Shown here: in pieces, positions 6,422-7,672 of the stretch | Layout: each line of letters starts with the position of its first letter | Numbering within the stretch: position 1 is the first letter of the stretch | Virus record (IMG/VR): IMGVR_UViG_638341196_000007 | DNA: 12,669 bases | Strand: one strand, 5' to 3' | Source: a virus | Lineage: Duplodnaviria > Heunggongvirae > Uroviricota > Caudoviricetes | Program-made: the position numbers and the translations under genes | The notes under the pieces: model-generated | Seen by the model: only the letters and a program-made list of their open reading frames with translations | The model's database searches: none | What the model was told of the DNA's origin: nothing

Positions 6422-6612
6422 TTTTCACCCCCAAGAATTACCAGCTCGGCACGGGCATCGTTAACCAAAGATGAGCACGCTTTAATCGCATCCACGACAT
6501 CAGTAGCGTCCATTTCTTCAGCCGAAAGACTGACAGCAACCAGGACAGCCGCTGCTTGCTCGATTAATTGAAGTGCGGACGTAAGGCGAGGGGTATTAAT
6601 TGAGTTATTCAT
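6418..6612 (-). CDS. hypothetical protein (64 aa, [10 protein letters not shown]...)
   Basis: ATG 6612-6610 chosen because the upstream frame's TAA sits inside ATGAATAAC; the ORF track extends it to 6669. Confidence 0.45.
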   Translation of the reverse strand: MNNSINTPRLTSALQLIEQAAAVLVAVSLSAEEMDATDVVDAIKACSSLVNDARAELVILGGEK

Positions 6613-6823
6613 TGGTTGCCCCCGTTTTTCCTGGCATTTCGCCACCTTCCAGCAGGAAATGAACGTCACGAACGGCGAGATCCAATATCGCGAGTAACGC
6701 CTTCAGTCTTTCGTCTCGTGAGGGAGAGTTGCTCACCAGAATGTCGTTAATCACTTCTGTCAGTGTGATGATCTGGCTTGTGCGTTCGAGGGGATCCATA
6801 TGCACATCGTAGGTTTTAATCAT
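6605..6823 (-). CDS. hypothetical protein (72 aa, [10 protein letters not shown]...)
   Basis: ATG 6823-6821 with GGAGGTG SD; in the same frame as the long 6605-7672 ORF, so it may instead be that ORF's C-terminus. Confidence 0.4.
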   Translation of the reverse strand: MIKTYDVHMDPLERTSQIITLTEVINDILVSNSPSRDERLKALLAILDLAVRDVHFLLEGGEMPGKTGATNE

Positions 6824-7672
6824 GTGCCACCTCCATGCGGATACGACCAGCAAAAAAGCAGATGTGATCGCGCACCAGAGAACGGCGAGCATCGCGTTCA
6901 GACTCGGCAGCAATATGATGAATTTTGGCGGTAATTGTCGGGCAATCGCGGCGAACTGCGGCGATAATCCAGATAAATTGCGGTTTTTGGGTAGTGGTAG
7001 TAGCCAGCATGTGGCAGCCTCCTTGTACTGGGAGTTCTTCCCACCACCGGAGCTGCGAAACTCGCTGGTGGTGGACTGAACAGAGTTCGCAGTACCGGCG
7101 TACAAGGAAACCGGCCAGCCTTTCGGCTGCCCTGTCCAGCCCACCATAATTTTGCAAGCGACGCGGATTATAACCGCATCACTGAAAAAAGTGTGAGTCT
7201 GGCTAACGGCACAAAAAAAGACGCTCGGCGCGTCATGTGTCGCCTCGTACATTTCCGGGCTGCGAAACCCGGCACCCGTTTTATGAGGTGCCTTATAACC
7301 ATAAACCGTGTTGCCGCATAACGGCAAGCTCTTTTTTATGGACTCCGAAAACTCACTATTGGAAGCACCAGATGCACAATACATCGCGCTCATTTCGTTA
7401 ACGTCGCGCGTGTGGACGAAGGTTTTTGTGGAGTCACTACGCGAGCAGAGAAAGCCATCTACGACCAGAAATTCTCTGGCGCAGCCGCCGACCTTCTCAA
7501 CGCTAACACCATCGACCGTAATTTCTGACATAGTTAAGGCATTCGCTCCCACCACCAGAAAATGATAAACTTTGCTTGTATCTGCTGTATTAATGCCAGA
7601 CTTTGCTGTCATATTGCTGGATTTTGGCGACATACCAGCCAGTGAAAATATCTTCTTCTGGACGGTTAGCAT
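6605..7672 (-). CDS. long open frame (355 codons) starting at a well-coupled ATG (7672); only the 5' part is credibly coding and the 3' extent is unresolved (alternative to the two small-gene calls at 6816-7010 and 6605-6823)
   Basis: ATG 7672-7670 with GGAGGT SD, overlapping the stop of the 60-aa gene (AAATGCTAA); no stop in frame until 6605; the frame runs through the hairpin-dense tract and two SD-bearing small ORFs. Confidence 0.3.
6816..7010 (-). CDS. hypothetical protein (64 aa, [10 protein letters not shown]...)
   Basis: ATG 7010-7008 with AAGGAGG SD 8 nt upstream; its TAA overlaps the next ATG; embedded out of frame in the long 6605-7672 ORF. Confidence 0.4.
   Translation of the reverse strand: MLATTTTQKPQFIWIIAAVRRDCPTITAKIHHIAAESERDARRSLVRDHICFFAGRIRMEVAHD
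7010..7340 (-). promoter_or_regulatory. GC-rich hairpin-dense leader; candidate attenuator / riboregulatory RNA upstream of the small-gene array and primase
   Basis: Series of adjacent perfect stems read directly (7311-7327, 7271-7292, 7255-7272, 7220-7234, 7116-7129, 7041-7074); octamer CTGCGAAA present in two loops; long-range pair CCTTGTAC (7021-7028) / GTACAAGG (7100-7107) partly covers the SD of the 7010 ATG. Confidence 0.3.
7213..7234 (-). terminator. terminator-like hairpin inside the structured tract (GACGC-N5-GCGUC followed by U7 on the minus strand)
   Basis: Plus-strand A7 at 7213-7219 then GACGCTCGGCGCGTC 7220-7234; stem only 5 bp, so weak. Confidence 0.3.

Follow-up and report, generated by a model that had tools for sequence, protein, structure and literature searches.

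A 355-codon open reading frame (ORF) on the minus strand of a Caudoviricetes virus record probably owes its conservation to being translated rather than to the protein that it would encode. The ORF occupies positions 6605-7672 of IMG/VR record IMGVR_UViG_638341196_000007, a stretch of 12,669 nucleotides (nt) referred to here as the window. The tract that it spans is probably the immunity region of a P4-like satellite island at tRNA-Thr, and the ORF the counterpart of P4 eta. A first-pass annotation, made from the sequence alone, had recorded a conflict between gene models here, with three possible resolutions: one large protein, a short upstream gene that had lost its stop, or overlapping small genes. 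The conflict is real and the frame is not a product of chance, but none of the three options is right alone, and the non-coding RNA genes and the P4 eta/kil/CI module to which they belong were missed. The tract appears instead to hold real small genes (icd and orf72), two non-coding RNA genes with a promoter, and a long frame selected to stay translatable without encoding a particular protein. The evidence consists of the anatomy of the tract, RNA structure with co-variation between RNA and targets, frame-specific exclusion of stop codons, conservation of phase, and a lack of codon periodicity.

The frame starts at ATG 7672-7670, which overlaps the stop codon of the preceding DUF4222 gene in the context AAATGCTAA. 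That gene (7666-7848, minus strand; Pfam PF13973, 85 bits; also annotated by the Prokaryotic Genome Annotation Pipeline, PGAP) is the upstream partner for translational coupling to the long ORF, so the first-pass description of an open frame beginning at a well-coupled ATG holds, and the ORF listing of the window confirms its 355 codons. The accompanying chance estimate for 220 codons, (61/64)^220 or 2.6e-5, is correct as arithmetic and errs on the cautious side. Dinucleotide shuffles of the tract (n = 20,000) contain a mean of 14.1 in-frame stops, and none is stop-free (Poisson expectation about 8e-7); the remaining five frames of the actual sequence carry 9-17 stops each. All six E. coli alleles examined keep the ORF whole. 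The frame is real and is held open by selection. An apparent break in strain UTAK-8 was rejected, as the start codon there has a different context and the ORF is intact.

The hairpin-dense tract and terminator-like hairpin noted in the first pass are also real, and they correspond to two Rfam families, isrK and C4, on the same strand as the ORF. A leader RNA of the isrK/seqA type (7214-7291, minus strand; RF01394, 69 bits against a gathering threshold of 50, E 2e-13) ends in an intrinsic terminator identified by a terminator scan (stem 7234-7220 followed by T7 at 7219-7213) and carries two seqA-like targets, TTCGCAG at 7266-7260 and GTACGAGG at 7250-7243. Further along lies a C4/CI-type antisense (immunity) RNA (7064-7151, minus strand; RF01695, 81 bits against a gathering threshold of 45, E 5e-15), with a loop b' (TCCTTGTAC, 7108-7100) and a single-stranded segment a' (CTGCGAA, 7092-7086). 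A seqC-like C4 target (7018-7059, minus strand) follows, composed of TTCGCAG at 7059-7053 and GTACAAGGA at 7028-7020. The second of these segments is complementary to b' and overlaps the Shine-Dalgarno (SD) sequence of icd, AAGGAGG at 7024-7018, while a' is complementary to TTCGCAG both at 7059-7053 and at 7266-7260. Matches to the c4-a1b1 family fall at the same position in relatives.

Two sets of loci place these elements in a comparative frame. The icd-anchored set contains 78 loci from one genome per species, found with the Icd/Kil protein as sole bait, which together with the window and P4 make 80. The bait alignment comprised three Icd-type sequences; a four-sequence version that included the P1-like phage D6 was too divergent. 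The RNA-anchored set contains 99 unique structured viral C4 loci, picked solely by the C4 sequence pattern in viral contigs. C4 and isrK stand at fixed positions in all 40 of the icd-anchored loci scanned with Rfam. A putative internal PLE-like promoter (7298-7327, minus strand) ends 6 nt before the start of isrK and consists of a -35 element TTGCCG (7327-7322), an 18-nt spacer and a -10 element TATGGT (7303-7298). Its pattern, GGCTTGC...TATaGT, is kept in 40 loci and, translated in the long frame, yields the motif 'KKSLP...VYGY'. A generic sigma-70 scan did not flag this promoter, reporting only a weak site at 7500-7471, and its promoter function is therefore deduced from position and conservation. 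As a separate observation, a possible intrinsic terminator on the plus strand at 7311-7337 consists of a palindrome, TTGCCGCATAACGGCAA, then GCTCTTTTTT. It shares sequence with the -35 element of the minus-strand promoter, is present in the window-type allele and is absent from L014-type relatives; it might stop antisense transcription coming from the RNA region.

Co-variation indicates that these RNAs are conserved as RNAs. Across 39 loci, 100% of the 999 cells of the Rfam C4 structure are paired, and 15 of the 27 pairs have changed on both sides. None of 500 shuffles does as well, and slid registers do not come close either. Matching between loops and targets was measured as the longest exact complement on the loop segments; folding the whole C4 RNA as a duplex with its flanks over-extended and was uninformative. 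Loop b' is perfectly complementary to its own seqC over 7-11 nt in 39 of 39 loci, versus about 4.5 nt for non-cognate combinations, in spite of 22 sequence variants. Segment a', with 9 variants, matches its own seqC perfectly over 7 nt in 39 of 39 loci (non-cognate, about 4.5 nt). The same behavior is seen at close range: E. coli alleles are 87-96% identical overall, with almost all divergence inside 7020-7270, where it takes the form of compensatory stem changes and co-ordinated changes in the C4 loops and both targets. This three-way co-variation is visible among the E. coli alleles themselves.

The frame that crosses these RNAs is kept open well beyond the window. Seventy-eight of the 80 loci (all except L047 and L078) have one frame that passes through isrK and C4 without a stop, while the two other frames close within 12-168 nt; the longest open frame is the icd frame in 76 loci and the +1 frame in the other 4. 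Among 78 unique sequences, the 282 nt before the icd ATG contain 3 stops in the long frame, 188 in +1 and 319 in +2, or, counted as distinct stop columns, 2, 35 and 35. The exclusion extends to the highly variable spacer, whose 73 unique versions have 0 stops in the long frame, 40 in +1 and 30 in +2. Length changes respect the frame as well. In the 40 scanned loci, the distance from the isrK start to the icd ATG takes the values 240, 246, 270, 279, 282, 285, 288 and 327, all multiples of 3; two further classes, 281 in the window clade and 278 in the decaying copy L047, do not fit, so that 8 of 10 classes keep phase. Start-codon coupling was scored as an in-frame ATG or GTG located -15 to +12 nt from the stop codon of a preceding ORF with 50 codons or more, and 61 of 74 loci show it. 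The viral RNA-anchored loci, collected by a different route, behave similarly, with at least 500 nt open in the long frame in 77 of 99 and in the other frames in 0 and 2. Homologues that carried a conserved stop near 7350-7000 would have spoken for a shorter gene, and no such stop is conserved. A spurious ORF of the AntiFam type would take up stops and frameshifts as freely as the other frames, and this frame does not.

Some IMG/VR contigs (L098, L116, L118, L131 and L143) contain two or three C4-pattern matches in tandem, which are 656-659 nt apart in L098, L116, L118 and L143 and each lie within an open frame. L098, L116 and L143 each contribute more than one of the unique loci, and L118 and L131 have two matches each. 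The arrangement suggests arrays of repeated immunity-RNA/ORF modules.

An open frame that shows no constraint on its protein is the second half of the argument. Column entropy in the tract, spacer included, is 0.72/0.77/0.75 at the three codon positions and therefore shows no codon periodicity. The sole protein-family match of the 355-residue product is Pfam PF10554, Phage_ASH, over residues 124-232 (99.2 bits against a gathering threshold of 26). This segment corresponds to nt 6977-7303 and takes in the -10 element, isrK, the spacer, C4, seqC and the first icd codons, with the -35 element (7327-7322) just outside. Within the segment, there is neither a third-position excess nor purifying selection on amino acids, and conservation is of the RNA type. 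Because codon periodicity is missing while the RNA stems show compensatory changes, the Pfam 'domain' is here read as the footprint of a promoter and its RNAs. Codon periodicity had been proposed in the first pass as a check on the conflict; no uniform coding signature runs through the tract, and the internal icd start is conserved in 80 of 80 loci.

The N-terminal 123 residues have relatives solely within the same element family, at 50% identity or more and mostly at 80% or more, and no protein family was found for them. Substitutions there (about 9 synonymous versus 20 non-synonymous) point to neutral evolution, and the codon score of the segment within the window is +0.09, versus 0.26-0.37 for real genes. 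Its place is taken in other clades by unrelated sequence that varies greatly in length but is always open, and the open stretch reaches hundreds of nt past the RNAs into this unrelated filler. The filler seems to be recruited from whatever sequence is present, as illustrated by L023 (Raoultella ornithinolytica), in which a frameshifted DUF4222 remnant is fused into the eta-like frame at about -657 to -500 from the icd ATG. In the window, the N-terminal part of the ORF is antisense to a fragment of a P22-type small-terminase gene (gene 3; 7418-7524, plus strand), which shares 93 of 107 nt with P22 and has weaker protein-level similarity over 7409-7558. The first base of the homology block coincides with that of the annotated P22 pac site, and window positions 7418-7439 (GAAGGTTTTTGTGGAGTCACTA) match this 22-nt site at 16 of 22 positions. 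The fragment is kept in all E. coli alleles examined; the phage collection searched with the pac-like 22-mer contained no phage with a closer pac variant.

The small genes embedded in the tract behave quite differently from the frame around them. The first-pass annotation had placed two SD-bearing ORFs here, one out of frame with the long ORF and one in frame, and both their SDs are where it put them. The icd/kil-like gene (6816-7010, minus strand) encodes a cell-division inhibitor-like protein of 64 residues, matches NCBIfam NF033153 phage_ICD_like (70 bits, cut-off 25) and is a homologue of P4 Kil, with 41% identity; its product aligns with both P4 Kil and D6 Icd. AAGGAGG (7024-7018) precedes its ATG, and its frame differs from that of the long ORF. 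Codon log-odds over icd are +0.35 in its own frame versus -0.16 in the long frame, and column entropy by codon position (0.60/0.54/1.14) shows strong codon periodicity. The second gene, orf72 (72 codons; 6605-6823, minus strand), has the SD GGAGGTGG at 6834-6827 and an ATGA overlap with the icd stop. It lies in frame with the long ORF and forms its C terminus, has a codon log-odds of +0.31, and has a 41.5% identical homologue at the same position in the Leclercia locus L022. Gene calling treats the exact orf72 sequence as a gene of its own on at least 1000 contigs, and orf72 is a real small gene. The option of overlapping small genes is thus borne out for this part of the tract, by the conservation and codon periodicity of icd and by the Leclercia homologue of orf72.

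The length of the ORF reflects a change of one base. The long frame is in frame with icd in 76 of 80 loci; in the window, L013, L022 and L025, one base is missing just before the icd ATG (GCC GCT ATG becomes GCC AC ATG), and because of this 1-nt deletion the long frame crosses icd in +1. No slippery site is evident at the deletion, which speaks against programmed frameshifting as a way to bring the frame back into icd. In the window, L013 and L022, the re-phased frame joins orf72 in frame after icd, which accounts for the 355 codons. A +1 frame free of stops across kil is also seen in P4 (L008, 7888-8460, minus strand) and in many relatives, where it is 474-486 nt long and runs in frame into the next gene, epsilon in the case of P4. 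This openness may be compositional, or it may be the reason that the one-base re-phasing was tolerated in the window clade.

The closest parallel to this arrangement is P4 itself. Mageeney et al. (2023, PMC10111431), with reference to Forti et al. (1999), describe a constitutive promoter inside eta, the transcript of which is soon terminated via CI/seqA interactions; they also state that Kil is a truncated Eta, that full-length Eta is translated solely from the upstream late promoter and coupled to the alpA homologue, that 'Eta translation prevents termination', and that eta nonsense mutations are reported to be polar. In the P4 sequence, the Rfam C4 model matches at the CI RNA gene (8420-8507) and the isrK model at the PLE leader with seqA (8615-8692). 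Both matches lie inside an ORF (8168-8812) whose last 65 residues are Kil, and the RNAs are read in P4 in the frame that the window ORF uses (YDAPRVFFC and GQPPGWPVS in P4 versus HDAPSVFFC and GQPKGWPVS in the window). The kil ATG is preceded, at -402, by an ATG that overlaps the vis/orf88 stop as ATGA and opens a frame of about 198 codons; this frame is eta. The two regions share an alpA/vis-type gene, a coupled long ORF, an internal promoter, an isrK-type leader with seqA and a C4-type CI RNA, followed by seqC over the ribosome-binding site (RBS) of a 64-65-residue Kil/Icd protein, small genes and a primase. The features that define a P4-type module, namely a C4 RNA, two targets, a Kil/Icd gene after seqC and a coupled long ORF, are all found in the window, with the exception that kil is not nested in frame at the eta 3' end. 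The window further differs in the length of its long ORF (355 versus about 197 codons), in about 127 codons of unrelated filler before the promoter, including the antisense terminase fragment, and in the presence of a 143-residue ORF, antA/B and DUF4222 between alpA and the long ORF. Unlike eta, the window ORF is not in frame with icd; it runs over this gene in +1 and terminates together with the following one.

Related modules occur elsewhere. The immI region of P1 and P7 (c4, icd, ant) has an RNA of the same Rfam C4 family, targets that overlap the icd RBS and an Icd-like gene directly downstream, but there ant comes next after icd, in the place that orf72 and replication genes occupy in the window. 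The P1-like phage D6 has no open frame across C4, and its longest open stretches measure 105-138 nt. The isrK-orf45-anrP region of Salmonella Gifsy-1 also has an IsrK-type RNA with its own terminator followed by a processed C4-like RNA (STnc1160). The Gifsy-1 orf45 over the C4-like RNA is translated, with conserved nucleotides and variable amino acids (Hershko-Shalev et al. 2016, PMC4825925), and its translation serves to bring ribosomes downstream (PMC4825925). In contrast to the window ORF, orf45 is short and begins downstream of isrK, the downstream gene is an antirepressor, and IsrK is reported to act by trans-activating orf45-anrP translation. Coding sequences of lambdoid phages annotated as 'Ant / transcriptional regulator' (SfV orf37 and Stx1a14040_200 of an Stx1 phage) likewise begin as coupled long ORFs that pass through isrK and C4 in the same frame, and they run past a conserved '...EAAIMAT' internal start into the Ant gene. 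Here the nested protein is an in-frame Ant/Rha antirepressor, unlike in the window, and the context is a lambdoid early-right operon rather than a satellite.

A scheme with two states can be proposed from these parallels. In the immune state, the constitutive promoter inside the ORF (7327-7298) would, by homology, make an untranslated isrK/seqA-type leader that often ends at its own terminator. Read-through of the isrK terminator would give the C4/CI-type RNA, which would then pair through two short segments with the leader target (7266-7243) and the pre-icd target (7059-7020). Pairing at the pre-icd target would hide the icd RBS, leaving the transcript untranslated and liable to termination, which in P4 is by Rho at timm, and the downstream replication genes up to the primase (1886-4645) would stay off. 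A candidate counterpart of timm, analogous in position, is a possible Rho-loading (rut) region at 6921-6998 (minus strand), where the mRNA is C-rich and G-poor (26 C versus 12 G) and the C/G ratio of 2.2 is the highest in the scanned stretch 6375-7700. In the activated state, the upstream promoter of the alpA operon would be switched on, again by homology. Ribosomes ending DUF4222 would restart at ATG 7672 and cross the promoter, the isrK terminator, the C4 gene and the target, and their translation would shelter the transcript against intrinsic and Rho-dependent termination as well as against the antisense RNA. Prevention of termination by translation is taken from P4 genetics, by analogy. 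Activity of the promoter and terminator, Rho dependence and processing by RNase P at this locus are presumed on similar grounds; CI and C4 RNAs are RNase P substrates (PMC5499578).

Alternatively, the ORF may encode a conventional functional protein, an 'Ash family' or Bro-network regulator that merely overlaps the RNA genes. Such a protein would explain the 99-bit Phage_ASH match, the name 'ash family protein' assigned by PGAP in hundreds of genomes and the conserved openness of the frame; moreover, Mageeney et al. (PMC10111431) treat Phage_ASH as a Bro-network domain, and in lambdoid phages the same frame runs on into a real Ant/Rha domain. Several lines of evidence make this explanation improbable. 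The third-position excess that is clear in the adjoining icd is lacking in the tract, multi-residue replacements follow compensatory stem changes, and the conserved 'motifs' coincide with the -35 and -10 elements, the RNA stems and the SD site. The N-terminal 123 residues have relatives confined to the same element family and a ratio of about 9 synonymous to 20 non-synonymous changes, and the C-terminal partner varies by clade, being Kil, Ant or the +1 frame of icd plus orf72. The first-pass option of one large protein therefore survives only in part: the frame is open and in phase across about 180 loci, but amino acid-level constraint is lacking and its sole 'domain' is a promoter with two RNA genes. 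The opposite explanation, that the ORF is a meaningless by-product of conserved RNAs that happen to be stop-free in one frame, with a spurious family name and absent or irrelevant translation, is unlikely too. It accounts for the exact mapping of the Pfam domain onto non-coding elements, the absence of codon periodicity, the inconsistency of PGAP between near-identical strains and the circulation of frameshifted variants. It does not account for the poorly conserved spacer, which is also stop-free in this frame (0 versus 40 and 30), for the distinct stop columns (2 versus 35 and 35) or for eight length classes that keep phase. Coupling of the start to an upstream gene in 61 of 74 loci, openness that extends hundreds of nt beyond the RNAs and the polarity reported for P4 eta nonsense mutations (PMC10111431) argue against it as well.

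That the first 125 codons or so are a present or recent independent gene, which lost its stop and became fused to the sequence downstream, is highly improbable. ATG 7672 is indeed well coupled, the codon score of the segment is weakly positive (+0.09), and some relatives end at 152-179 codons. However, these shorter forms result from frameshifts within isrK or its T-run and do not reflect a stop conserved ahead of the promoter, and a search for relatives found neither one that ends upstream of 7330 nor a protein family for the segment. The segment evolves neutrally, has no relatives outside near-identical elements and holds the antisense terminase fragment, and other clades carry in its place unrelated sequence of very different length that is always open.

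Selection for translation itself is supported by a frame that is open, in phase and coupled in the absence of amino acid constraint. Several observations count against the proposal of an eta counterpart selected for its translation, or limit its reach. The P4 model does not carry over exactly to the window clade, because the long frame there is not nested with icd. The +1 phase occurs in only 4 loci, representing about two lineages, and openness across icd and orf72 could be chance, a possibility raised by the open +1 frame over kil in many ordinary loci. Twenty-one of the 99 viral C4 loci and the P1-like phage D6 are without an open frame, so that openness is not intrinsic to the RNA module. 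Loci within each sample are related, and the counts overstate their independence, for which the distinct-column count corrects in part. Finally, close relatives exist in which a disruption at the isrK T-run or within the isrK stem shortens the ORF to 155-210 residues. These are far rarer than the 355-residue form (clusters of 1-45 members versus 681), and some may be homopolymer sequencing errors.

The tract belongs to a widespread element. A near-identical stretch is present in 1156 of 5426 complete E. coli genomes, where the tract sits in an island adjoining tRNA-Thr/proA with the order integrase, DUF6387, alpA, the 143-residue ORF, antA/B, DUF4222, the tract, several small ORFs and a TOPRIM/DUF927 primase. 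In the window, the integrase gene lies at 10537-11589 (minus strand) and the primase, a downstream replication gene, at 1886-4645. An int-alpA RNA (Rfam RF02996; 10409-10476, minus strand; 46.7 bits against a gathering threshold of 35.8) is found on the downstream side of the integrase gene, directly ahead of that for DUF6387. A circular relative of 12,152 bp, deposited as a plasmid record (NZ_CP148430.1, L091), has the same gene order from alpA to primase. It also carries genes for a tyrosine integrase and a PerC-family regulator and, as another remnant of P22-like origin, a truncated 'phage DNA ejection protein' gene, and it resembles a satellite that has been excised or exists as a plasmid. 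No sid, delta or psu genes were seen in the window or in this 12-kb circle, and for this reason the island might be packaged by a P22-like helper via the captured pac region.

Annotation of the region varies from strain to strain. The window ORF is annotated as 'ash family protein' (WP_000958750.1). Among L001, L002 and L007, in which the ORF is equally intact, PGAP calls either icd together with an 'ash' pseudogene or a single 355-residue 'ash family protein', and isrK, C4 and orf72 never receive an annotation in these records. The pseudogene flags were considered as a sign of a broken ORF and rejected, since they reflect an annotation choice.

The system itself is already known, as P4 eta/kil/CI, and its one-base phase variant is of modest novelty. 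Evidence that Phage_ASH is a footprint is a useful, if likewise modest, addition. A more general proposal, for which we see the chances as about even, is that the 'Ash family' is not a protein domain at all. It would instead be the footprint of a promoter and two immunity RNAs within widespread ORFs of P4-like satellites and lambdoid phages that are selected only for translation, each acting as a ribosome track that shields read-through transcripts from the embedded terminator, Rho and the antisense RNA. In the E. coli/Shigella/Leclercia clade, this track would have been re-phased by one base, so that late read-through no longer makes toxic Kil/Icd and ends in orf72. A curated protein family would then describe non-coding elements here, and a recurrent RefSeq conflict between an ash protein and a pseudogene plus icd is resolved. 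The eta mechanism, demonstrated genetically for one phage, is extended comparatively to about 180 loci, which offer a natural system in which to study how ribosomes override intrinsic, Rho-dependent and antisense RNA-mediated termination.

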